Assembly (NCBI GenBank): GCA_036749235.1
Contig: DAINYW010000002.1
Coordinates: 34,926-66,925 of the forward strand
Origin: Nitrosopumilaceae archaeon
Lineage (GTDB): Archaea; Thermoproteota; Nitrososphaeria; Nitrososphaerales; Nitrosopumilaceae
Direction of reading: 5' to 3'
DNA: 32,000 nt
The notes under the pieces are model-generated. The model was not told where the DNA came from. It ran no database searches and was given only the letters and a program-made list of their open reading frames with translations. Of the stretch, positions 67 to 32,000 are shown piece after piece (position 1 is the stretch's first letter; each line of letters starts with the position of its first letter). The position numbers and the translations under genes were made by a program.

Positions 67-537
67 CTAGCCCATTTTTAGAATCGCATCTCTTATCTTG
101 CTTGTTCTTCCGAAAATAGTCTTGGCAATTTCGTCAATTTCGTCAGCTGATGGTCTCTTGCCTGAATGGGCAAGAAAGTAAACGGTCTCAAATTTTCCAA
201 CTATAGCTCCGTGGACATAGCCGTATGCATATTCCGATTCATCTTTTATCTGCAAGGTATCTTTGAAGTTAGGCAAATGCATGTCCTTGAGAAGTCCAGG
301 AATTTTAGATATTTCTTCATCAATCACTTTTTCGAGTAATTCTTTATCTTTTTGTTTCAAACTCACGTCTGACAAAATGAAATTGCCCCATAAAAGTGTG
401 GTACTAACATTGACACATGCGAAATCGCCCTTAGGAAAACTGCAATTATTGCTGGAACTGGTACTATAAGGGCACATAAGCAGCAAGTCAAATTTACGAA
501 CTAGGTCGTACGATTGCGACAGAGTACACGATTTCAC
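67..537 (-). CDS. hypothetical protein
   Basis: 156-aa ORF. The C-terminal two thirds is non-repetitive with normal composition (...YAYGYVHGAIVGKFETVYFLAHSGKRPSADEIDEIAK...). No motif recognised. GTG start at 537 is uncertain; the first in-frame ATG is at 477. Confidence 0.4.
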   Translation of the reverse strand: MKSCTLSQSYDLVRKFDLLLMCPYSTSSSNNCSFPKGDFACVNVSTTLLWGNFILSDVSLKQKDKELLEKVIDEEISKIPGLLKDMHLPNFKDTLQIKDESEYAYGYVHGAIVGKFETVYFLAHSGKRPSADEIDEIAKTIFGRTSKIRDAILKMG

Positions 538-8112: not shown

Positions 8113-8970
8113 CTACTGGTAATAATTGGTACTCATTACCAATTCACGGTCTAAAAAATTCAGTATTATATCTGCGAATTTTTCTGGCTGTTCTACATGG
8201 GGTACATGTCCGCATCCTGGAATCTCAACAAATCTTGATTCTGTGATCGCAGACATAAATGGACTGGCATACTCTACTGGAATCACCTTGTCCTGCTTCC
8301 CCCATAGTATCAAAGTGGGTGACGTTATCTTTCGAAGCTTGTCCTCAAAATCCGTATCGTTCTTGATGCCCAAAACAGTTGAAAGGATTGCAAACTTTGC
8401 GTTTGGAAGGTTCATTCTTGTGATAAAGTCGTTTACTAACCTTTGTTCGACCTCTCCTTTCTCCACCATCATCCTAAGGGCCATATGTGCATTATCAGGC
8501 GTGGGATAGAGCGCAGCCAACATGTATGCGTCAAGGGCAGGAGTGGATCTCTTCATCATCCCTGAAGGAGATACTAAAACGATCTTATCTATGACACCAC
8601 TTTGAGTGCTAGCACACTCCGCAACTATCTGACCTCCTAGCGAAGATCCAATCAGACTTGTCCTTTCTATGCCAAGTGCTCCTAAAAATCTAAACACAAA
8701 ATTTGAAAGAAAATCCATGGTATAGTCTACTGACGGCTTGTCACTATGGCCAAAACCGATCAAGTCTGGTATGATCAGTCGATATTTTGACCTCAGATGG
8801 GGAATCACACGAAGCCATCTTTCTGCAGAGGCACCAAGGCCGTGGATAAGAACCAGGGTCTCGTCAGAATCACCGTCGTCGAGATACCTTGTGTTGTATC
8901 CTGCCACGCTTACAAATCGCTCTTTCAAGGATGTTTGTTCGCAGTTTCTACACAAGATAACCTTTTCCAT
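8113..8970 (-). CDS. alpha/beta-fold hydrolase
   Basis: HG oxyanion motif (LVLIHGLGAS), nucleophile elbow G-S-S-L-G-G, and C-terminal catalytic His in GCGHVPHVEQPEKF. General MhpC/BphD-like esterase architecture. Confidence 0.85.
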   Translation of the reverse strand: MEKVILCRNCEQTSLKERFVSVAGYNTRYLDDGDSDETLVLIHGLGASAERWLRVIPHLRSKYRLIIPDLIGFGHSDKPSVDYTMDFLSNFVFRFLGALGIERTSLIGSSLGGQIVAECASTQSGVIDKIVLVSPSGMMKRSTPALDAYMLAALYPTPDNAHMALRMMVEKGEVEQRLVNDFITRMNLPNAKFAILSTVLGIKNDTDFEDKLRKITSPTLILWGKQDKVIPVEYASPFMSAITESRFVEIPGCGHVPHVEQPEKFADIILNFLDRELVMSTNYYQ

Positions 8971-8996
8971 AACAACATTTAGACAGAATGTTATGA

Positions 8997-10085
8997 TTAT
9001 TGAATCTCAGCTAACTTTTCAGCTGCATCCCTTTCGCCTTTTTCTATAAGTTGCTTTATTGTTGTAATAGAAAAATCAGCATCCTCAAAGAGAAAGTGCG
9101 AGTCCTCCTGACGTTGTATCCTTACTATCTGATCTATTATTGCGCCTCTTTCACCTGCCAGCTTTTGGTACTCTTGCTCTATTCTTGAAATCTTTGCCTT
9201 AGAATTGTCATCTAGAGGAACCTTGATGAGAATTTCATACATTTCTCTAACAAGCGAAAGATATCGGTTGATGACCCTTGACATGCGAAGGTTGTGTAAC
9301 GTCTTATCTGCATGCATGATATCCCTTGCCCTATGCCATACCTCGATCATGTTTCTTGGAAGCTCGTGTTGTTTGTCTGGAAACACGTCTACGATGTAAA
9401 CCCTCTTGTCATGCTTTGGAGAAGCATCAATGACTTCTCGAAGAGGTGTATTACTAAGTAACGTTCCATCCCATAGGTACTTGCCATTAATTTGTGTCCA
9501 AGATATTCCATAAAATGGATATCCTGCACATGCAAGAATGTGATCTGCCATTATGTTGTCGTACATGCTATCAAACACAGATGGTTTTGCGTTTTCTACG
9601 TCAGTTGATGTTATTATCAGCCGCGGTCTTTTTTGTTCCCTTATTTTTTTAAAATCTACATATTCATTTAACGTATTTTTCAGTGGCCTTAGATCGTAAA
9701 GATATGGCCACAAAAATGGAAAGAAGTAATCAGGAGAAGGCAGAAACCATTTTGGTAAAAATAATTTAGGATTGCCCCAAATGGCAGAGTTCATAGATGC
9801 AAAGTATGGTCTAACATTATCTGGCAACCCAGGCGGAGTAAGATATTCTGCTATATCTAACCAAAAATTCTCCAAGTCTTTCACAGGATCATTTTTTGCA
9901 CCAGCAATTATTGCTGCGTTTATTGCGCCGATCGAAGTTCCTGCGACGATATCAAATTTTATTCCATGCTTATTTAGAGCCTTGTACACGCCGCATTCGT
10001 ATGCTCCAAGTGATCCTCCACCTTGTAAAATGAGGACTGTCTCAAAACTCAACTTTTTGTTCTCTTTTTGAGATAGACTTTGCAT
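8997..10085 (-). CDS. patatin-like phospholipase/esterase
   Basis: Oxyanion G-G-G-S-L-G, nucleophile G-T-S-I-G (Ser51), and catalytic Asp in YLWDGTLLSNTP. Confidence 0.85.
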   Translation of the reverse strand: MQSLSQKENKKLSFETVLILQGGGSLGAYECGVYKALNKHGIKFDIVAGTSIGAINAAIIAGAKNDPVKDLENFWLDIAEYLTPPGLPDNVRPYFASMNSAIWGNPKLFLPKWFLPSPDYFFPFLWPYLYDLRPLKNTLNEYVDFKKIREQKRPRLIITSTDVENAKPSVFDSMYDNIMADHILACAGYPFYGISWTQINGKYLWDGTLLSNTPLREVIDASPKHDKRVYIVDVFPDKQHELPRNMIEVWHRARDIMHADKTLHNLRMSRVINRYLSLVREMYEILIKVPLDDNSKAKISRIEQEYQKLAGERGAIIDQIVRIQRQEDSHFLFEDADFSITTIKQLIEKGERDAAEKLAEIQ

Positions 10086-10163
10086 TCAATATGAATTATT
10101 CCGTAAAATATTAAAAGGTTTGATAATGTATTGCGATAGTTTACAACTGAGAATTACTATAAC

Positions 10164-10172
10164 ATTATAATA
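10164..10172 (+). promoter_or_regulatory. TATA-like box for the aldehyde dehydrogenase gene
   Basis: 'attataata' centred 27 nt upstream of GTG 10195. This supports the GTG as a leaderless start. Confidence 0.4.
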
Positions 10173-10194
10173 CGATGATTCCACAGTATGGTCC

Positions 10195-11583
10195 GTGAGT
10201 TTCAAAACAATCAATCCAGCCACCGAACAGGTCATGGTGGAATATCAAAACATTAGCAAAGACGAACTTCAGACAATTGTAAAAAAATCTAGAATCGCAT
10301 TTCATGACTGGAAGAAAAACATCAAAAAAAGAGCAGATTACTTGCATATCTTTGCGCAAGAGCTAAGAAAGGAAAAGGCCAAGCTTGCGCGCGTTGCAAC
10401 AAATGAAATGGGAAAGCCTATCAAAGAATCAATTTCAGAAGTGGAAAAATGTGCGTGGGCAATGGAATTCTACGGGGATAATGGTGAGATCTTTCTAAAC
10501 CCTGAAGTTGTTAATACTGATGCTCGAAAGAGCTACATTTCATTTGAACCACTCGGAGTGATTGGAAGTATAATGCCATGGAATTTTCCCTATTGGCAAG
10601 CGCTGAGGTTTGCAGCTCCCTGTCTTATGTCGGGAAATACCGTGGTGCTAAAGCCTGCAAGTGCAACTATGCAGTGTGGAATAGAGATAGAAAATACCTT
10701 GAAGGCAATTGGATTGCCGGAGGGCGTATTTCAGACAATAGTAGGCGATTCAAGTATAGCAGAACAACTTATCGACTCTGATGTAAATGCAGTAACATTT
10801 ACCGGAAGTAACATAGTCGGTGCTAAAGTAGCTCAAAGGGCTACATCTCAGATAAAAAAGTGTGTTCTTGAACTTGGTGGCAGTGATCCTTTTATCGTGT
10901 GCTCGGACGCAGATATAGAAAAGGCATCAACCGGTGCAGTAAAAGGAAGATTCATCAATTGTGGCCAAAGTTGTATTGCATCTAAGCGATTCTTTGTTGT
11001 CAAAAAAGTAGCAAAGGACTTCATTGAGAAATTTCTTCAAAAAGCTGAAAGACTAAAGGTTGGGGACCCCATATCTGAAGATACTGATATAGGGCCATTG
11101 GTAAATGCAGCTGGCCTCAATAAAATAGAAGATCTTGTAAAAGACGCAGCAAGCAACGGTGCGCAGGTATTGACAGGAGGAAAGAGATTGAGGAGTAAAG
11201 GATACTTTTATGCCCCTACTCTTTTGGATAGGGTTACCACCAAGATGAGAGTAGCTAAAGAAGAAGTGTTTGGCCCCGTTGCACCAATAACTACAGTGGA
11301 AGACGAGATGGAAGCAATAAAACTTGCCAATGAATCCCAATTTGGCCTAGGTGCCAGCTTATGGACTCAGGACCTTGAACGGGCAAAAAAACTATCCGAA
11401 TTGGTAGAATCTGGTATAGTCACCGTAAACAATGTTGTCATATCGGATCCTAGAATTCCCTTTGGCGGAATCAAACAAAGTGGATTTGGAAGAGAGCTAT
11501 CAAGATATGGAATGCTTGAATTTGTTAACATGAAGTCTGTGAGGTTCTACGACCAACTAGTGATTCATCACCACGTCGAATAG
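10195..11583 (+). CDS. NAD(P)+ aldehyde dehydrogenase, succinate-semialdehyde dehydrogenase-like
   Basis: ALDH superfamily strings: PWNFPYWQ, FTGS..VG, catalytic Glu in LELGGSDP, catalytic Cys in FINCGQSCIASKRF, and EEVFGPV. The short N-terminus (INPATEQV...) is typical of GabD-type enzymes. Substrate cannot be fixed from sequence. Confidence 0.85.
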   Translation: MSFKTINPATEQVMVEYQNISKDELQTIVKKSRIAFHDWKKNIKKRADYLHIFAQELRKEKAKLARVATNEMGKPIKESISEVEKCAWAMEFYGDNGEIFLNPEVVNTDARKSYISFEPLGVIGSIMPWNFPYWQALRFAAPCLMSGNTVVLKPASATMQCGIEIENTLKAIGLPEGVFQTIVGDSSIAEQLIDSDVNAVTFTGSNIVGAKVAQRATSQIKKCVLELGGSDPFIVCSDADIEKASTGAVKGRFINCGQSCIASKRFFVVKKVAKDFIEKFLQKAERLKVGDPISEDTDIGPLVNAAGLNKIEDLVKDAASNGAQVLTGGKRLRSKGYFYAPTLLDRVTTKMRVAKEEVFGPVAPITTVEDEMEAIKLANESQFGLGASLWTQDLERAKKLSELVESGIVTVNNVVISDPRIPFGGIKQSGFGRELSRYGMLEFVNMKSVRFYDQLVIHHHVE

Positions 11584-17149: not shown

Positions 17150-18196
17150 TTGCAAGTGAAGACCAGTATGATGTTAATTGTTGGATTAACAGTAGCTACA
17201 ATTATTGGTGCAATCTTCCTAACTCTAACATTTGTGAATAACTCTAGCTTGGATTATAGCTCATTGCCAAAGAAAACATCCTTTTCAATAACAGAATACA
17301 AAATACCCGATCTAACCAGTTCGCCATTATTTCCAGTTTATGATAATATGCGTCACGTAATATGGGTAGGTGATACCAGAAATAACAGCAGTAGAATTTG
17401 GGAATTTGACATAATCAAACATGAATTTGTAGAACACAAGCTTGATAGTGTAAGATATGTAACTGTGATAACATTAGACTCGGATGGCAACCTATGGTAT
17501 ATAGATCCTGCGTCAAGATTCCTTGGACATTATAACCCAAATAATCAAACTAATAAGATAATAAAAATCCCTTCAAACGGGACTCTGACTAGCATAGTTT
17601 TAGATCCTGCAGGCAACGTCTGGATATCTGGAACTAGTTCTGATGTCTTTTTGAAATATTATGTCCATAACGCAACCTTTTTAGAAATTCCGACGCCAAC
17701 ACCTCATGCCTCGCCCCTAGGCATGGCGAAAGATAAATCCGGTACGATATGGGTTGCTGAAGCAATAGGCGCATTAGCAAGGGTAGATCCTACTCTTAAC
17801 AAGATTACGGAATATCATCCACATGACATCAAGTTGAAGATTCCAGTTGCAACTCAATTGGATCCAGGCGATGCAATTGTATATATTACAGAGCACGGTG
17901 AAGACGCTCTTTTTTCATTTGATACAAAATCTGAAAATTTTGTGAGACATGCACTGCATCATGATCCTCAAGCACTTCCGTATGGGATGGCATTTGATAA
18001 ACATGGAAATCTGTGGGTTGCAGAACATACGGTAAACAAAGTAGCAGTATTTGTTCCCTCTACAGGTTATAGTACCGAGATACAGATTCCATCTCCAAAT
18101 CCCTTGACACAGTGGCTTGCGGCTGACGAGGAAGGAAGAATTTGGCTTGCCGAACCTGGTGGGGCCGCAATCGGTGTTATAAATGAGACAAATTAA
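17150..18196 (+). CDS. membrane-anchored/secreted beta-propeller protein (streptogramin-lyase/NHL-like repeats)
   Basis: N-terminal TM/signal MMLIVGLTVATIIGAIFLTLTF. Seven recurrences of a blade signature (VIWVGD, NLWYID, NVWISG, TIWVAE, IVYITE, NLWVAE, RIWLAE). Collinear paralogue of aa 622-925 of the CopC-CopD fusion. The track start is TTG 17150; ATG 17168 is more likely. Confidence 0.8.
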   Translation: MQVKTSMMLIVGLTVATIIGAIFLTLTFVNNSSLDYSSLPKKTSFSITEYKIPDLTSSPLFPVYDNMRHVIWVGDTRNNSSRIWEFDIIKHEFVEHKLDSVRYVTVITLDSDGNLWYIDPASRFLGHYNPNNQTNKIIKIPSNGTLTSIVLDPAGNVWISGTSSDVFLKYYVHNATFLEIPTPTPHASPLGMAKDKSGTIWVAEAIGALARVDPTLNKITEYHPHDIKLKIPVATQLDPGDAIVYITEHGEDALFSFDTKSENFVRHALHHDPQALPYGMAFDKHGNLWVAEHTVNKVAVFVPSTGYSTEIQIPSPNPLTQWLAADEEGRIWLAEPGGAAIGVINETN

Positions 18197-25881: not shown

Positions 25882-26379
25882 TTATAAGCTTGAGAAAGTA
25901 TCAGCGAGGTTATACGCTGTTCTTTCAAGTAGTATTGGGTTATATTTTTGAATAATTTCTCTAACCACGTCGACATTCCTTAGGTTGAATGTTTTTTTAA
26001 AATAGGTATTTTTGGTCTCGATCACTTTATCCTCAATTAATTGGGAAAGATACGTAGAAACTGTAGATGGTGATTTACGCACTTTTTCAACCATATTTGA
26101 GAAAGAAAGATTTTGATCATTGAGTAACGCAAGCAATATTCTTTGTGGAGTTTCCTGTCTTAGATTTCTTATTAAAATTGATTCTTCCTTTGTGACAAAA
26201 AGAGGATAGAATCTAGTTCTGCCTGACTTTCTTTCTATTTTTACGGTTCCATCTTCTTCCAGTTTTTTTACATGATAGCTTAGAACGCCGTTTTTCATTC
26301 CGGTTTCTCTCATTATTTCACGAAATTTTATTCCAGGGTTTTTTTCAATCAGTCTAACGATTTCAGAGCTTCTGTTCAT
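25882..26379 (-). CDS. transcriptional regulator with two tandem winged-helix domains
   Basis: wHTH 1: IVRLIEKNPGIKFREIMRETGMKNGVLSYHVKKLEEDGTV. wHTH 2: RILLALLNDQNLSFSNMVEKVRKSPSTVSTYLSQLIEDKVI. An SD, AGGAGGG, lies 7 nt upstream of the ATG inside the end of the upstream gene. Confidence 0.8.
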   Translation of the reverse strand: MNRSSEIVRLIEKNPGIKFREIMRETGMKNGVLSYHVKKLEEDGTVKIERKSGRTRFYPLFVTKEESILIRNLRQETPQRILLALLNDQNLSFSNMVEKVRKSPSTVSTYLSQLIEDKVIETKNTYFKKTFNLRNVDVVREIIQKYNPILLERTAYNLADTFSSL

Positions 26380-26381
26380 GT

Positions 26382-26774
26382 TTAGTCCCTCCTAAAGACG
26401 CTAATTGCAAACATCCCAAGTGTACAAAGGGAGAGAAAATGTCCTATTTCTCCAGCAGAGAATACCCCAAGATAATATGTATATTGCCAAGCGGCGTCTA
26501 CTAGCGAAAGAGTTTCCGATGCTACAAATATGGAAAAAGCAAGCATCGTAAACAATAACCTTCTTGTCCTTACTCTTGCGTAGGCTATGACAGATACAAT
26601 ACTGAGAAAGGCAGCCAAACCAATTCCGCTAAGGTGAAGCAGTATATGGAAAACCTGGAACTTGTGAAATATGTGAGGTAATATTACAGGTATAGCTAAG
26701 ATTCCTATTACGGCAAAGATGGTTAGCGTGAATAGCTTCGACCTATTTTCCAATAGAGGGTTGGTTTTAAGCAC
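26382..26774 (-). CDS. 4-TM membrane protein with a His-rich first loop/helix
   Basis: Four hydrophobic segments. There are 4 His within 14 residues (LPHIFHKFQVFHILLHLSG) plus GEIGHF in TM4. GTG start. There are 2 nt between its stop and the regulator's ATG. Confidence 0.7.
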   Translation of the reverse strand: MLKTNPLLENRSKLFTLTIFAVIGILAIPVILPHIFHKFQVFHILLHLSGIGLAAFLSIVSVIAYARVRTRRLLFTMLAFSIFVASETLSLVDAAWQYTYYLGVFSAGEIGHFLSLCTLGMFAISVFRRD

Positions 26775-26803: not shown

Positions 26804-27002
26804 CGAACTGGTACAACCATCGAACAACGAATTGCTATCTAGAATAATATGGCATAACCTGCTATCTTTGTAGAATTATCAATTCACTTATGTTGCCAAA
26901 TGGAGAATTTCTATTTGCAGCGAATCGTATCGACTTCATTTGTCTCCGTTCTTGCTGTGCGCTCGATGTCATGCAGCAACGAACTGGACATTTTCAAGCT
27001 CT

Positions 27003-29975
27003 CTATTCAATATTCTTAATCTTAATTACTTGCTCTGAGCTTTTTCTAAGCTCTATTACACCTTTGCAGTAGAAAAAGGCCACAACAATTAGTAATCCTG
27101 TGATCGATGGGGCTACTACTTGAACATAACTAAAACCTAATCTAGGAATTCCTGCAACTATATTTGTTTGACTAGGAAAATTGTTTTGTGACGGACCTGC
27201 GGTTATTGTTATTGTTCCAAGCTTTTCTGCCCGCTCCTCGGCAATCACGATATTTCCTTGCGAATCAGGTGTTATCCATTGTACAGAGGAGTTTGATGAT
27301 GGAATATTTATCTCGATACTCTCTCCAGTCCTTGGATCAACTATTGCAATTTTATCAATAGTGTGCTGCGCAATCCAGAGATTGTGGTATTTGTCAAACG
27401 CCATTCCATAGGGTAGACCACTAGGATCAAGCGGTATTCTCTTGAATGTCTTAAGCAATGGATCAAAGACTGATACTGCATGACCCTCGTGTTCTGAGAC
27501 GTATATCTTTCCTGTCTGGGAATCTAAAATTATACCAGTGGGGTCCACAAGTGTATAGTTTTTCTCAGATGGTGAATACTCTGTTATCTTGTTGTTTGTT
27601 GGATCAAGACTAGCTATTTTTCCGATTCCTTCTGCAATCCATATTTTGCCTAAAGTGTTGCCTATCGCTATATCCTGAGGACTAGATTTGTTATCTAGCT
27701 TTATTGAATTAAATTCAGATGCCTTATGGTTGAATTTCAATATCTCGGCTGCGCCTGTGTCTATGTTTGTAGATGTCATCCAAATAGTATCGTTACTGTC
27801 AATGGCAATGCTTGTGAGAATTCCTTGACTTGGAATTGGATAATCTTGGTGTGAGTTATCATCTGGATTATAATGTCCAAGAATCTTTCTCTGATAATCG
27901 ATATACCAGAGAGTATCATGCGAATCTAAAGCCATGTATGTTATACTGTTTAATCCGTCAATCTTGTGTTCTGTGTATTTGTTTGATCCCAGATCAAACT
28001 CAAGTATCTTACCACTCTTGAATGTAATGTCACCAACCCATATCTTGTTTCTAGTATTATCATATACTGGATACTTTGGCGTACTGTTTGCAGGGGTTTT
28101 AAATTCAGAAATTTTTACAAGCAAGTCGTTTAGTTTTGGTCTGACAAGTAAGTCATACGATGCTACAAGATTGAGCGCATTTTCCTTGTCTTGTACTCCT
28201 TCGACTCTGACCGTCCAGTGTCCTGGAAGTCCAAAATCGGTATTTGCAACAAATGCCCCAGTAGATGTTTGGTTTGCATCTAGCGCGATTGATCCTATTT
28301 CTTGGTCGACCGGTGTAAGTCTCAACTTTACTGACTGCATATCAATTGGATTCTTGCTTGAATCCAAAAATGAAATTTTAAAATTATTACTCCCTGTAGA
28401 AAATGGGTTAATTGATAAGACTATTCTGCTTCCATTTTCGACAAACCTTGTCTCTGAAAAACCATTTCCTAGAGTGTTATCCGTAGAAGCAAGAGCAAAG
28501 ACACTTTGTCCATTTATTAGTTGTAATTGACTTTGAAACTCACTTGACGGTAATCCAGAATCGACAAGTACTGCTACGGAGGCAATCAAAGCTATTCCAA
28601 TCATTGCTTCGATTTGTGTGCTTTTACTAAATTGTGAGAAAATTCGCGTTAAATTAGCTGCGCCCGAGCTAATTGCATCATCCTGATTTGCGTTCAAGAT
28701 GACTGTGGCCTTGAATGCATGCTTGTGAATTACTGTCTGATTGTACGCACCTAGACACAACATGGCTGATGCAAGAGAAAGTTTTATGATAAGTACTTTG
28801 CCGTAGGTTGATGCAAGTGTTAATGCGATGTTGTTTTCAAGGACGAAAAGCAGAACTGGACCTGTTACTGCTATTGAGCCAAGTATAGTAATAACCAGTA
28901 TTGAGAACCGCGGAATAATAATTGAGATTGATGATATGTTGGCCGTGTCATTGACGGCTTGCTTCAGATTCGGTAGAATAATGAACGCAATATAGAAAAT
29001 CCCTCCGATCCAGAGAGAAGCAGCTATATTGTGGATGAAATCTAATGTTAAGGGAATCATCTGACCAGTAGCTGCACCGTGAGAGATCAAACTTGTTGTT
29101 GCCAGTATTGCAACACCTATGAAAAATAATGACATGACTAAACCTCTTGGAGCAAGTGATTTTGAGTTTCTTACTTTGTAATATGTTATTAAGGAGATTC
29201 CAAGTAGCACCGCGCATTCGATCATTCTTAGAATCCATATGTTTCCAAATTTGGTAGAAATGGCATCTAATATTCCAGCGTTGATTGAATGTGCCTGAAC
29301 TACAATCATTGCAAAACCTGAAGCCAAAAGAACGACAGAACCAATCACTGTCAATTTCATCATACCTATATCGATCTTGGTTCGAGTTTCTGCAATTGAA
29401 TTTCGTAACCAAGAAATTCTCGAGATGGGCTTCCATAACCATAGAGTTGCAAAAGTAGATCCAACTACCATGACTTGCCCGACAAGCGCAGGAAATCTTG
29501 CAAATGCTTCAGGTACAGAGATCTCCTGATAGATACTAGATGTCACATTGTTAGCTAGATTTGGTGGCACAGCTTGGCCCACGGCAAAGAAAAAGGGGTT
29601 TTCAGTTACATGACCGTCTATTTGATCTAGAACTTTGGCTGTCACAGTGTAAATTCCGTTTGACAACCCAGGCTGGAGAGAAATACTAACGGCCTTCTGA
29701 TCATCGGTTATGTAATGTAAATTCTGACCCTGAACTTCTTTTCCGTTAGTGTCCAAAACTCGTATCTGGCTATATTTGATATCAATGGGATCATTAAAGT
29801 AAACGTCGATTTTCGAAGGAGGTGTGTTCAAGGATTGTAGGGAAGCAGGAATGCTGTGGTCTATGTATGCATGTGCATAAGATTTTGGAAGGTTTGGAAT
29901 AACAATTAACGCGGAGGAAATTAAAAAGATAATTAGGACAACTTGAAATGTAGTTCTACGATCAAATCTTCTCAT
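27003..29975 (-). CDS. CopC-CopD fusion extended by a YtkA/FixH-like beta-sandwich, a beta-propeller and a C-terminal anchor
   Basis: Signal peptide ending SYA, then His35. CopC domain at aa 35-133 (HAYIDHSIPA...IDVYF...IRVLD.NGKEV...LDQIDGHVTENPFFFAV). About 8-10 TM CopD region at aa ~155-475. Beta-sandwich at aa ~512-612 (SINPFSTGSNNFKISFLDSSKNPIDMQSVKLRL...GLPGHWTVRVEG). Seven-blade-like propeller at aa ~622-925. TM anchor at aa ~948-972. Confidence 0.9.
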   Translation of the reverse strand: MRRFDRRTTFQVVLIIFLISSALIVIPNLPKSYAHAYIDHSIPASLQSLNTPPSKIDVYFNDPIDIKYSQIRVLDTNGKEVQGQNLHYITDDQKAVSISLQPGLSNGIYTVTAKVLDQIDGHVTENPFFFAVGQAVPPNLANNVTSSIYQEISVPEAFARFPALVGQVMVVGSTFATLWLWKPISRISWLRNSIAETRTKIDIGMMKLTVIGSVVLLASGFAMIVVQAHSINAGILDAISTKFGNIWILRMIECAVLLGISLITYYKVRNSKSLAPRGLVMSLFFIGVAILATTSLISHGAATGQMIPLTLDFIHNIAASLWIGGIFYIAFIILPNLKQAVNDTANISSISIIIPRFSILVITILGSIAVTGPVLLFVLENNIALTLASTYGKVLIIKLSLASAMLCLGAYNQTVIHKHAFKATVILNANQDDAISSGAANLTRIFSQFSKSTQIEAMIGIALIASVAVLVDSGLPSSEFQSQLQLINGQSVFALASTDNTLGNGFSETRFVENGSRIVLSINPFSTGSNNFKISFLDSSKNPIDMQSVKLRLTPVDQEIGSIALDANQTSTGAFVANTDFGLPGHWTVRVEGVQDKENALNLVASYDLLVRPKLNDLLVKISEFKTPANSTPKYPVYDNTRNKIWVGDITFKSGKILEFDLGSNKYTEHKIDGLNSITYMALDSHDTLWYIDYQRKILGHYNPDDNSHQDYPIPSQGILTSIAIDSNDTIWMTSTNIDTGAAEILKFNHKASEFNSIKLDNKSSPQDIAIGNTLGKIWIAEGIGKIASLDPTNNKITEYSPSEKNYTLVDPTGIILDSQTGKIYVSEHEGHAVSVFDPLLKTFKRIPLDPSGLPYGMAFDKYHNLWIAQHTIDKIAIVDPRTGESIEINIPSSNSSVQWITPDSQGNIVIAEERAEKLGTITITAGPSQNNFPSQTNIVAGIPRLGFSYVQVVAPSITGLLIVVAFFYCKGVIELRKSSEQVIKIKNIE

Positions 29976-30006: not shown

Positions 30007-30124
30007 GCTCTTGCGAGAAAAGTGGTACAACAGTAGAATTAGACTTTCAATTTAGGAACCTTTCATCTTTTACCATCTAGATTTCTATAATTATTATATT
30101 TCTGGTGTTCGACGACTGTACTAC

Positions 30125-30157: not shown

Positions 30158-31060
30158 GTGAATAATAGAGTACTTGTCCTAGTTATTGGTGGAATTATTT
30201 CCACTGGTTTAATTTACACGCCGCACGCATCAGCTCATAATTTTGGAGGAGATGAGAGTGCATCATTTCTTGCCAAAGTGGCAGAAATAAAAACAGAAGT
30301 GAATTTCATTTCAAAACATGTTTCAGAGCCGGATGCAATTGATTACTACGCTGATGCCCTCAACGAGTATTGGAATGCTAATGATACGAGAGAAATGGGA
30401 GAGAGAAATACGCTATTACAAAAAGAGATTCCAGCCACGATTAATGCTACTATAGGCGATGCAAGATCTGGAAACCAAGCTGCCGTTAATGCTGATGTCT
30501 CGCAGCTAAACGGATATCTTGACGAAGCTGTTCCAGTTAGAATAGACAAAGACAAGCTTTCAAATTCCACCGTCCAAGCACTAGCAGTAACTTTTGTCTT
30601 AAAAGAAGCTTTAGAGAAGTATGGCGATGCAATCAACTCTACAGTGGATCTCAATGATATGTCGCAGATGAACATAAACGGTAGCGTGTCTAGCGGTTCT
30701 ACGGGTTCGACGCAACAAATGGCTGTCACCATTGTTGACCAACACAAATATTATAATTCGATAGGTCTTGCAACAGCAGCTCAGCAAATGTTCAATGACT
30801 TGGCTGCAAAGAACCCCGACAAGTCTACTTTTAACGCCAAGATATCGGCTGGACTTGCAAAGATGATACAGGACCTCAATAACAAAGCCGACGCAAATAC
30901 GATAATGACAGATGCGCACGTTGACCTCCACCGCGCCATAGTTAGTGGCTACAATATTCAAGAGGTACCAGAGTTTCCAATGCCGGCATTATTAGTGATA
31001 ATCTCAATAGTGGGAGTGATAGCGATATCAAGATTTAGGTCAGTCAAGTTAAGACAATAA
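30158..31060 (+). CDS. secreted all-helical protein with predicted N-terminal His and PEF-CTERM-type tail
   Basis: Signal peptide ending HASA, then His27 (30236-30238). About 240 aa of helical A/N/D/K-rich sequence. C-terminal P-E-F (30968-30976), then TM segment ALLVIISIVGVIAI, then SRFRSVKLRQ. Confidence 0.75.
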   Translation: MNNRVLVLVIGGIISTGLIYTPHASAHNFGGDESASFLAKVAEIKTEVNFISKHVSEPDAIDYYADALNEYWNANDTREMGERNTLLQKEIPATINATIGDARSGNQAAVNADVSQLNGYLDEAVPVRIDKDKLSNSTVQALAVTFVLKEALEKYGDAINSTVDLNDMSQMNINGSVSSGSTGSTQQMAVTIVDQHKYYNSIGLATAAQQMFNDLAAKNPDKSTFNAKISAGLAKMIQDLNNKADANTIMTDAHVDLHRAIVSGYNIQEVPEFPMPALLVIISIVGVIAISRFRSVKLRQ

Positions 31061-31086
31061 ATATACGATCATTTACTTGAATCTAA

Positions 31087-31791
31087 ATGAAAACAAGAAT
31101 TGTAGCTCTTGCATCCGTTTCTATTTTCATTCTGCTAATAATTTCCATTTCCCCATTTGCCATTAAATCAGCTTTGGCCCACATAACTAAAGTGTATGGT
31201 AATTACCTCCTGACCGTCGGGTGGGCAAATGAACCGGTGTATAATGGGTTAATTAATGCACCATTAGTTATAGTAAAAAAAGGTAGTGGAGACACTGCCA
31301 AGCCAGTAATTAACGGGCTAGCTAATATGCAAATCTCAATAAAATATGGCTCGGTAACAAAAAAATTGGATTTTGTTCCAGATAGTACGGTCGATGGACA
31401 ATATGTTTCTCCACTAGTTCCTACAAGAGTCGGCTCTTACAGTCTGATAATGAAGGGCACTATAGAAAATCAGAGTATTGACACCGAAATAGCGCTTGAC
31501 GATGTTGCAAGCATAGATATTTTGAATTTTCCTCCGAATACGTCTAGCGATACTTCGGCAAATTTGGGACAAGTTGGAACAATTCTTGACCAATTAACAA
31601 ATGACATTGAAGAAGCAAAAAAGAATTCTGATGCTGCATCTCAGGATCTCTTAAATGCTGCCAAATCGTTCCAAGATGTAAAGGATAGCACCGACAGGTT
31701 ATACCTAATAAGTATGACAGGAATTGGTGTTGGAATCGCTGGAGTAGTAATAGCGGTAATCGCGATTACGCGCAACAAACAACAAGTCTAA
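31087..31791 (+). CDS. secreted beta-sandwich protein with predicted N-terminal His, helical stalk and TM anchor
   Basis: Signal peptide ending SALA, then His32 (cac at 31180-31182). About 110-aa beta-rich domain (HITKVYGNYLLTVGWANEPVYNGLINAPLVIV...). Helical segment, then C-terminal TM segment GIGVGIAGVVIAVIAI followed by TRNKQQV. Confidence 0.7.
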   Translation: MKTRIVALASVSIFILLIISISPFAIKSALAHITKVYGNYLLTVGWANEPVYNGLINAPLVIVKKGSGDTAKPVINGLANMQISIKYGSVTKKLDFVPDSTVDGQYVSPLVPTRVGSYSLIMKGTIENQSIDTEIALDDVASIDILNFPPNTSSDTSANLGQVGTILDQLTNDIEEAKKNSDAASQDLLNAAKSFQDVKDSTDRLYLISMTGIGVGIAGVVIAVIAITRNKQQV

Positions 31792-31931
31792 TTTTATAGA
31801 CACTAGTACAAATGTGAAATCTACTATCATGCGGGATTAATTCTTCGCATCATTATCTCTGTATCAAATAACATCTGTGACTAGGTTTCATGACAATTAG
31901 TCTCTTTAACTTCGCATAAAGTACACAAGAT

Positions 31932-32000
31932 ATGGGACCAACTGTATTTACAAAAACATATGATCTCATGAAGTCAATAAGCAAGGTGATTGGGAATGCT
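31932..32000 (+). CDS. possible 5' end of a CDS running off the window
   Basis: ATG at 31932 opens a frame (MGPTVFTKTYDLMKSISKVIGNA...) that stays open to the window edge. Only 23 codons are visible. Confidence 0.2.
   Translation, partial: MGPTVFTKTYDLMKSISKVIGNA

Follow-up and report, generated by a model that had tools for sequence, protein, structure and literature searches.

Candidate copper-binding surface proteins with predicted N-terminal histidines encoded beside a CopC-CopD fusion in a Nitrosopumilaceae archaeon

The window analysed here, a 32,000-nucleotide stretch from a Nitrosopumilaceae archaeon (contig DAINYW010000002.1, positions 34,926 to 66,925, assembly GCA_036749235.1), carries close to its downstream end two genes, here called A and B, which lie in tandem on the forward strand with 26 nt between them and are divergent from a gene for a CopC-CopD fusion (copCD) in the list of open reading frames (ORFs; Table 1). 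Judging from the conservation of its predicted mature N-terminus and from its genomic company, B is probably a copper-binding partner of CopCD, and the locus as a whole can with fair confidence be read as a copper-acquisition module in which CopCD is joined by two accessory surface proteins. Copper enzymes are central to ammonia-oxidising archaea (AOA), whose nitrification may be limited by the supply of the metal; the locus points to concrete extra components for an uptake route that in these organisms remains for the most part a CopC/D-based model (PMC7785015).

In all three precursors, A, B and the fusion, a basic n-region is followed by a hydrophobic h-region, positions -3 and -1 are taken by small residues, and in each of them the predicted mature chain would start with histidine: His27 of A (codon 30236-30238, +) follows TPHASA, and mature A would start HNFGGDE...; His32 of B (codon 31180-31182, +) follows IKSALA; His35 of the fusion (codon 29871-29873, -) follows PKSYA and corresponds to position 1 of the Pfam CopC model. 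An earlier reading of this DNA from its letters alone (the sequence-only reading) had described two co-directional ORFs divergent from the fusion gene and a histidine directly after A-S-A, A-L-A and S-Y-A, and both coordinates and codons are exactly as it gave them. It had also judged coincidence unlikely for these histidines, which the homologues bear out: the residue is kept in 75/75 aligned homologues of A and 128/129 representatives of B, and is not a chance feature. A rule-based inspection placed a signal-peptide-like context right before the histidine in 240 of 245 B-family sequences, a set made up of HMMER representatives and pattern-selected locus ORFs.

B has no Pfam match at E<=1 and belongs to no NCBIfam family. 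A word-indexed search returned 318 close relatives, each of which comes from Nitrosopumilaceae or Nitrosotalea and is labelled 'hypothetical', and a HMMER profile search over representatives at 50% identity extended the family to 1040 clusters at E<=1e-3 (348 at E<=1e-10), many of them high-GC, bacterial-looking sequences. In an alignment of 105 members with a mean column identity of 16%, E49, P50, G116 and P149 are the only invariant positions, A31, H32, G45, W46, N57 and several Gly, Tyr and Pro positions are kept in more than 90%, and the transmembrane (TM) segment and basic tail are conserved across the family. Counted over the HMMER representatives at 50% identity that span the N-terminus (n=129), Glu49 and Pro50 are present in 129/129, Asn57 in 128/129 like His32, Ala31 (position -1) in 122/129 and Trp46 in 120/129, with Phe at the latter position in 8. 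The same representatives have no second conserved His, Met or Cys (no other such column above 50%), and no other His, Met, Cys, Asp or Glu column in the sandwich exceeds 54%. The family signature runs from a signal peptide through AxA/H-x5-G-x-[YI]-x3-VGW-xx-EP, where the slash marks the predicted cleavage, to the sandwich, an FP motif, a linker, the TM segment and the basic tail; the cleavage site is of the AxA signal-peptidase-I type with no lipobox Cys, and the anchor is a C-terminal TM helix.

This pattern of conservation recalls YcnI of Bacillus, the only characterised extracellular partner of the CopCD importer. YcnI of B. subtilis is a signal-peptide-cleaved, C-terminally TM-anchored sandwich that adjoins a CopC-CopD-YtkA fusion (YcnJ) and binds a single Cu(II), the ligands being His27 (by its N-terminal amine and N-delta) and Glu50, with Trp137 lying stacked on the metal, an arrangement named 'monohistidine brace' (PMC8424229). 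The sequence-only reading had suggested a histidine-brace copper site of the kind found in CopC; for B the conserved N-terminal His stands, but a canonical two-histidine brace is unlikely, His32 being the sole conserved His, and a YcnI-type monohistidine brace (His plus Glu, with Trp nearby) would fit the conservation better. That either protein might be a histidine-brace oxidative enzyme acting on a surface polymer, in the manner of lytic polysaccharide monooxygenases (LPMOs), is suggested by the N-terminal His on a beta-sandwich, the hallmark of LPMOs (PMC10952591). B, however, lacks the second conserved His needed to complete such a brace, its globular part is only about 110 residues long, neither A nor B has LPMO-family similarity in Pfam, and the context of the locus is copper transport, not carbohydrate metabolism, all of which makes this explanation scarcely credible.

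The genomic surroundings of the family were surveyed with a degenerate DNA pattern for AH-x5-G-x-Y-x3-VGW-xx-EP in one genome per GTDB species, which yielded at least 120 loci, retrieved as 8-kb blocks not centred on the B gene. These loci were picked by the motif itself, so their residue conservation is circular, and their ORFs were called crudely, some high-GC neighbour ORFs being spurious; the counts below refer to the 120 loci listed. A B-family ORF is present in 120/120, CopC in 88 and CopD in 77 (profiles made from the CopC domain and the CopD domain in the window). The B match is strong in 114 loci, of which 83 have an adjoining CopC/CopD gene and 17 end at a block or contig edge, so that among the loci whose flank could be inspected copCD adjoins B in 83/97, and the synteny with copCD that the sequence-only reading had looked to extends across genomes. 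The bacterial hosts are Chloroflexota (Dehalococcoidia, Limnocylindria, Anaerolineae, Chloroflexia), Actinomycetota and Dormibacterota, and the archaeal ones Thermoplasmata and 'Methanobacteriota' metagenome-assembled genomes (MAGs), one Bathyarchaeota MAG and Nitrosopumilales. The usual order has copCD directly downstream on the same strand, with stop and start often overlapping, as found in Chloroflexota (copCD adjoining in 42 of 56 loci), Actinomycetota (13 of 18), Dormibacterota (3 of 3) and archaea other than Thaumarchaeota, here including Thermoplasmata and Bathyarchaeota (6 of 6); in Thaumarchaeota (16 of 27) the two are divergent. The distance between B and copCD is about 100 bp in Nitrosopumilus, Nitrosopelagicus and relatives, and about 1.1 kb, with A in between, in Nitrosotalea and the clade of the window.

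Neighbours other than copCD vary, the commonest being winged-helix regulators, cupredoxins, DUF3105 and FUR proteins. No YcnI homologue was found in these loci with phmmer, which is consistent with B taking the role of YcnI, and the 25 Pfam families most often met in 150 neighbouring ORFs do not include YcnI/DUF1775, PCuAC or Sco. Small His-rich exported proteins also recur beside bacterial B-copCD pairs (e.g., L013 2449-2937, +, and L057 3072-3662, +). Chelation by the amine and imidazole of an N-terminal His serves Ni and Co too, as in CbiM/NikM, and A and B might accordingly handle Ni, Co, Zn or Fe and not copper. A few bacterial neighbourhoods of B contain regulators of the FUR family and, in Nitrosotalea devanaterra (L001), B is followed by a 282-aa gene of unknown function (8785-9633, +) and then by a NicO-family Ni/Co transporter gene (9689-10477, -), about 1 kb downstream of B. 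Yet NicO is not conserved in the other loci, cupredoxin genes recur near B, and its sole cross-phylum conserved partner is CopC-CopD, whose characterised members act on copper (PMC12154828, PMC13344008); a different metal is therefore very improbable.

The AlphaFold2 model of B, which like that of A was made from a family alignment, comprises a beta-sandwich (residues 32-142), a long helix (160-201) and a C-terminal TM segment, in keeping with the sandwich of about 110 residues on a helical stalk with a TM anchor that had been described earlier. Strands are predicted at 32-37 and 40-46 and form a hairpin whose register would set His32 opposite residues 45-46, with Glu49 three residues past that stretch. 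Comparison of profiles with hhalign linked the core to the YtkA-like domains of CopCD fusions: a YtkA-domain profile built from CopCD proteins only gave a probability of 92% (E 6.5e-7) over B residues 47-124 and matched 30/275 B sequences at E<=1e-3 (an iterated version that held B sequences, 98.7%, was set aside), and an independent alignment of 39 domains that follow CopD, 34 of which are YtkA-like in Pfam (PF13115), gave 87.7% (E 3.4e-6). Compared with PF13115 directly, 14/105 B members gave weak matches, the best at 24.2 bits against a cut-off of 25.9, and the B protein of the window gave none, the family remaining below the Pfam gathering threshold. By these profile comparisons B appears to be a distant and distinct branch of the YtkA-like fold, which would have gained an N-terminal hairpin with His, Trp and Glu. 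The CopCD YtkA-like profile also matches, with E 1.4e-8, a 110-residue 'Copper resistance protein' in PDB entries 9LL2, 9LL4 and 9LL5, for which no paper was found in the literature searched; these structures would serve best as a template against which to compare the core of B.

Two other relationships were considered and rejected. Homology to YcnI/DUF1775 has a probability of 0.1% (hhalign with a YcnI sequence identical to PDB 7ME6) and DUF1775 is absent from the matches of the 105 B members, as expected from the earlier remark that B resembles YcnI in architecture with no obvious match in sequence; homology to CopC has 5.8% against the CopC profile and 0.2% against the CopC of the window, with no Pfam match. 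A Foldseek search of the PDB with the B model returned generic immunoglobulin (Ig)-like domains (top 3qfg, E 5.9e-4), and the B profile found only low-complexity or TM artefacts among PDB sequences; PDB fold matches, of A as of B, were not used for fold assignment.

The homology to domains already fused to CopCD offers another way to understand B, namely as an accessory or scaffold subunit of CopCD that binds no metal, a YtkA-like Ig domain acting in trans with the hairpin serving protein-protein contact or folding. Ig-like domains often mediate contacts, and B has a single conserved His and no conserved Met or Cys. We regard such a role as improbable: the best-conserved polar residues of B are the N-terminal His, Glu and Trp, the three residue types of the YcnI Cu(II) site, and in about 99% of members the His falls exactly where cleavage is predicted, as if the free alpha-amine mattered, a precision that a contact surface would seldom require.

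Naming of the family in public records is scant. B and A of Nitrosotalea devanaterra have the accessions CUR52090.1 and CUR52091.1. An exact-sequence look-up found the Nitrosotalea A/B pair labelled 'conserved exported protein of unknown function', a profile search with bacterial B members returned 'hypothetical protein' only, with no precomputed Pfam domain, and no Pfam or NCBIfam model, source annotation or paper in the literature searched describes the A or the B family. It had been suggested that the two may be undescribed archaeal proteins: neither is named in the databases searched, but B is most abundant in monoderm bacteria (Chloroflexota, Actinomycetota). A Nitrosopumilus B paralogue (L108 3971-4705, -; WP_368060173.1) bears the RefSeq name 'peptidase', probably a misannotation to which the family gives no backing. 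Paralogues of B also occur in tandem, with three copies plus A in one Nitrosotalea MAG and two copies in several Dehalococcoidia (loci with paralogues: L111 4192-7559, L059 2475-4309, L116 3687-5458, L076 and, in Nitrosotenuis, L028 and L058); those of Nitrosotenuis are more divergent and do not adjoin copCD.

Protein A is a narrower addition with weaker evidence for copper binding, restricted to a Nitrosotalea-like clade. It has no Pfam or NCBIfam family, and its 290 homologues are all hypothetical proteins of Nitrosopumilaceae or Nitrosotalea. Among the loci listed it is present in 15/120, each time directly upstream of B, and it stands between copCD and B in 11/11 of those whose copCD side lies within the 8-kb block. 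In 75 aligned homologues (61-98% identity, mean column identity 68%) A26, H27, G31, D32, W72, M80 and M250 are invariant, and the protein contains no Cys. The AlphaFold2 model (pLDDT 78.6, pTM 0.73) is all-helical, with disorder in the N-terminal tail as far as residue 32 and in a loop at 174-186, and with a C-terminal anchor, which agrees with the earlier description of an all-helical protein with a PEF tail (VPEFP, a TM helix and a basic tail). In the anchor P271, E272, F273 and P276 are invariant in the 75 homologues. Against the sorting-signal models it scored below threshold, at 13.1 bits for TIGR03024 (E 0.089, cut-off 23) and 12.0 bits for TIGR04296 (E 0.12, cut-off 25); models of short motifs often give low scores. 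No archaeosortase was found among ten ORFs scanned between 15.7 and 25.8 kb of the window.

Several features of A would fit an extracellular copper-binding protein, in which the N-terminal His would be suited to Cu(II) and the Met clusters to Cu(I). Across the family the Met-rich loop, about 36 residues long, contains 6 Met in the median (e.g., DLNDMSQMNMSSMSGGSMSGGSMQM), with MSxM-type repeats in most members, and the last helix presents a Met/His ladder (Table 1). On the strength of these sequence features, copper binding by A falls just short of an even prospect. It may instead be unrelated to copper, a lineage-specific surface or S-layer-associated helical protein inserted between copCD and B, with an incidental His. 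A is confined to one clade and has no recognisable copper-protein fold, the best match of its model among PDB structures being at E 0.16 in Foldseek, which does not count as similar; the family is shallow, so its conserved residues weigh less and are not decisive; and the loop is depleted in the window, where it holds 3 Met only. Opposed to this are the operon-like pairing of A with B in every A locus listed (gaps of about 10-30 nt), the promoter motif described below, which stands before A at a fixed distance, and the combination of MSxM-type repeats in most members with a conserved M-x3-H-x3-H helix face. A role for A outside copper is unlikely on balance, though by no means negligible.

Table 1. 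Positions of the genes, protein segments and promoter motifs discussed in the text (window coordinates unless given as residues)
Feature	Position	Strand	Remarks
Gene A	30158..31060	+	300 aa, GTG start; signal peptide residues 1-26, predicted mature N-terminus His27, PEF-type C-terminal anchor
A, disordered Ser/Gly/Met-rich loop, residues 158-195	30629..30742	+	low pLDDT at 174-186
A, last helix, M250-x3-H254-x3-H258 ladder (ANTIMTDAHVDLHRAIV)	30893..30943	+	M250 75/75, H254 74/75, H258 73/75
A, PEF-CTERM-like sorting signal, VPEFP + hydrophobic helix + basic tail (VPEFPMPALLVIISIVGVIAISRFRSVKLRQ)	30965..31057	+	tripartite tail present
Gene B	31087..31791	+	234 aa; signal peptide 1-31, beta-sandwich 32-142, FP motif 148-149, helical stalk 160-201
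B, N-terminal hairpin of predicted mature protein, H32-ITKVYGNYLLTVGW46-AN-E49-P50	31180..31236	+	family signature, proposed copper site
B, beta-sandwich core, residues 47-122	31225..31452	+	aligns with YtkA-like domain of CopCD fusions
B, C-terminal end	residues about 205-228	+	TM anchor, then basic tail
CopC-CopD-YtkA-like-NHL/Vgb-type beta-propeller fusion	27003..29975	-	990 aa, C-terminal TM segment
Candidate regulatory pair, downstream of copCD	25882..26774	-	Pfam matches; pair also adjoins copCD in Nitrosotalea
130-aa membrane protein, several His in TM segments	26382-26774	-	weak DUF7471 match
Double winged-helix ArsR/MarR-type regulator, HVO_0163-like	25882-26379	-	Pfam
Motif TTCGACGACTGTACTA	30108..30123	+	right 5' of TATA-like box; ends 35 nt before A start codon
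Motif TTCTACTGTTGTACCA	30023..30038	-	5' of TATA-like box; ends 48 nt upstream of copCD start
Motif TTCGATGGTTGTACCA	26809..26824	-	ends 35 nt upstream of start of operon for 130-aa membrane protein and helix-turn-helix (HTH) regulator

The promoters of the locus share an element. Alignment of the copCD-A intergenic regions of 11 related loci brought out two blocks, each just 5' of a TATA-like box, from which a 16-nt pattern, TTC-N6-TGWACYA, was defined. The window has 3 copies of it where 0.39 would be expected, and 3 or more occurrences were seen in 0/100 shuffles; TATA-like boxes lie directly 3' of it at all three operons (regulator, copCD and A-B), and the site at 26809-26824 lies outside the derivation of the pattern and is independent of it. 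In the related thaumarchaeal loci listed the element keeps its distance to A in 9 loci and to copCD in 5, and it precedes B in 3 listed loci that are without A; over all loci listed, its density is 0.14 per kb in thaumarchaeal loci vs. 0.006 per kb in the others. As the motif is common to A-B, copCD and the regulator, these operons are probably switched on together, and at the level of sequence this supports co-regulation of A-B and copCD. In Nitrososphaera viennensis a motif (TTCSGSMTTTGWACYANT) lies 35-70 nt upstream of genes induced by copper limitation, among them copC/D and the gene for an exported protein of unknown function (PMC7785015). NVIE_014340, an exported protein encoded near copC/D there, is induced by copper limitation. 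The element of the window has the same TTC and TGWACYA parts with identical spacing, and by this resemblance induction of A-B and copCD under copper limitation is suggested. The full N. viennensis 18-mer, with 3 mismatches allowed, is not enriched in the window (1 vs. 1.46 expected). A 2-mismatch match to it (TTTCACATTTGTACTAGT) at 31802-31819 on the reverse strand, just past the stop of B and opposite to it, is within that chance expectation of 1.46 per window.

The regulatory pair downstream of copCD recurs, each of its two genes in 9 of the thaumarchaeal loci listed, and the membrane protein and HTH protein may act as sensor and regulator on TTC-N6-TGWACYA; the conserved element is also a starting point for finding the copper regulator that these archaea use. 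In the fusion, Pfam and NCBIfam place CopC at residues 35-132, CopD at 354-470 and a Vgb_lyase/NHL beta-propeller at 761-943, and residues 522-591 match YtkA below threshold in Pfam. The extra C-terminal propeller of NHL/Vgb-lyase type and the last TM helix occupy residues of about 640-960, where bacterial CopCD fusions have one to three YtkA-like domains. Propeller matches among the loci listed number 17 ORFs, 15 of them thaumarchaeal CopCD proteins; of the two others, one is the copCD fusion of a Bathyarchaeota MAG (L091) and one stands as an ORF by itself in a Thermoleophilia locus (L034). A stand-alone propeller of Vgb-lyase/NHL type (348 aa) is encoded at 17150-18196 (+) of the window, possibly a paralogue of the one fused to CopCD. 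The window itself stops 209 nt past B (31792-32000).

The sequence features, conservation, synteny, distant YtkA homology and shared motif suggest the following course of events. B would be exported, cleaved after Ala31 and kept at the membrane by its C-terminal helix on a helical stalk of about 40 residues, and its YtkA-like sandwich would bear an added N-terminal hairpin with a single Cu(II) site of 'monohistidine brace' type, formed by the amine and imidazole of His32 and the carboxylate of Glu49 with Trp46 stacked nearby. With this site B would trap or buffer Cu(II) outside the cell, at its surface, in exchange with the His-brace CopC domain of the CopCD next to it; from there the metal would pass to CopD for import, a role demonstrated by experiment for the unrelated YcnI with YcnJ in B. 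subtilis. A would be a clade-specific, helical, PEF-CTERM-anchored surface protein whose flexible His27 tail, Met/His ladder and Met-rich loop would provide one more step of copper binding or storage, perhaps of Cu(I) along with Cu(II), and the A-B, copCD and regulator operons would be on together, most likely under copper limitation. It had earlier been suggested that the surface proteins may feed CopCD, a direction not established even for YcnI and YcnJ: Cu(II) moves in vitro both from YcnI to the CopC domain of YcnJ and back, and both proteins are needed under copper limitation (PMC12154828).

Along with the points on A given above, several others weigh against this picture. Signal-peptide cleavage of A, B and the fusion was assigned by rule from sequence. 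The model of B is of moderate confidence (pLDDT 59, 66-79 in the sandwich), the presumed nearness of His32, Trp46 and Glu49 follows from its predicted hairpin register, and YcnI, CopC or a named YtkA structure are not among the PDB fold matches of B. In 14/97 testable loci no copCD adjoins the B paralogue despite the flank being present. The promoter pattern was derived in part from the sites at 30108-30123 and 30023-30038, which are not independent of it; the latter, the closest to the N. viennensis motif, agrees with it at about 14/18 consensus positions in a hand alignment, the site before A matches at fewer positions, and N. viennensis belongs to a different order of AOA.

A broader reading can be put forward only tentatively. 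B would be a third independent class of N-terminal-His CopCD partners beside CopC and YcnI, arisen by graft of the hairpin on a YtkA-like domain and replacing YcnI in Chloroflexota, Actinomycetota and several archaeal phyla; acid- and soil-adapted AOA would have recruited A, a new helical fold, archaeosortase-anchored, with an N-terminal-His Cu(II) site and a Met-rich Cu(I) loop; and the whole would be a copper-limitation regulon under TTC-N6-TGWACYA, an element that Nitrosopumilales loci and N. viennensis would have in common. More generally, the B family suggests that an unannotated protein other than YcnI, following the same ligand logic, is at work in many other monoderm bacteria and archaea. 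If so, the 'monohistidine brace' would extend beyond DUF1775 and the YtkA-like fold would acquire a metal site of defined kind. Definition of the family (about 1040 clusters) would improve the annotation of thousands of genomes.

Among known systems, Met-rich periplasmic copper proteins and Met-rich inserts of copper oxidases (CopA/PcoA, PcoE, CueO) are the nearest counterparts of A, which is also exported, with a disordered MSxM-type Met-rich loop, and encoded in a copper locus. Unlike them, A has a folded body of two helical bundles, an N-terminal His tail and an archaeal PEF-type anchor, and no sequence similarity to them was detected. With CopC (PF04234), the Cu(II) histidine-brace chaperone, B shares a predicted N-terminal His on a small beta-sandwich and the association with CopD, and such a CopC is encoded next to B (His35 of the fusion); B has, however, neither homology to CopC nor the second His (D-x-H motif) of its Cu(II) site.

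The relation of B to YtkA-like domains (PF13115; CtaK and the C-terminal domain of YcnJ/CopCD) is one of homology in the Ig-like core (probability 88-92%). YtkA, or CtaK, a membrane-tethered extracytoplasmic protein implicated in CuA assembly, has a functional overlap with YcnJ's YtkA domain (PMC13344008). B is likewise predicted to be extracytoplasmic and membrane-tethered and is tied to copper trafficking and CopD, but the N-terminal His/Trp/Glu hairpin is its own, absent from YtkA-like domains, and it is anchored by a C-terminal TM helix instead of a lipid or fusion to CopD.

The closest functional parallel is YcnI (DUF1775, PF07987), of which we propose B as an analogue that would bind and exchange Cu(II) and would have arisen independently. 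B likewise has a signal peptide whose predicted cleavage exposes an N-terminal His, a small extracellular beta-sandwich followed by a linker and one TM anchor at the C-terminus, and its gene adjoins a CopC-CopD fusion; its best-conserved candidate ligands are likewise one His, one Glu and one Trp, and both proteins belong to monoderm organisms, without an outer membrane. In contrast to YcnI, with which it has no detectable sequence relationship, the core of B aligns with YtkA-like domains, its Trp and Glu lie 14 and 17 residues past the His within one hairpin, at positions not homologous to Glu50 and the C-terminal Trp137 of YcnI, and the long helical stalk is peculiar to B. A surface protein with an N-terminal His paired with CopCD is already known from YcnI; new here are the scaffold of B, in which a hairpin is grafted on a YtkA-like core, the wide spread of its family over monoderm bacteria and archaea, the clade-specific helical protein A and the conserved cis-element.

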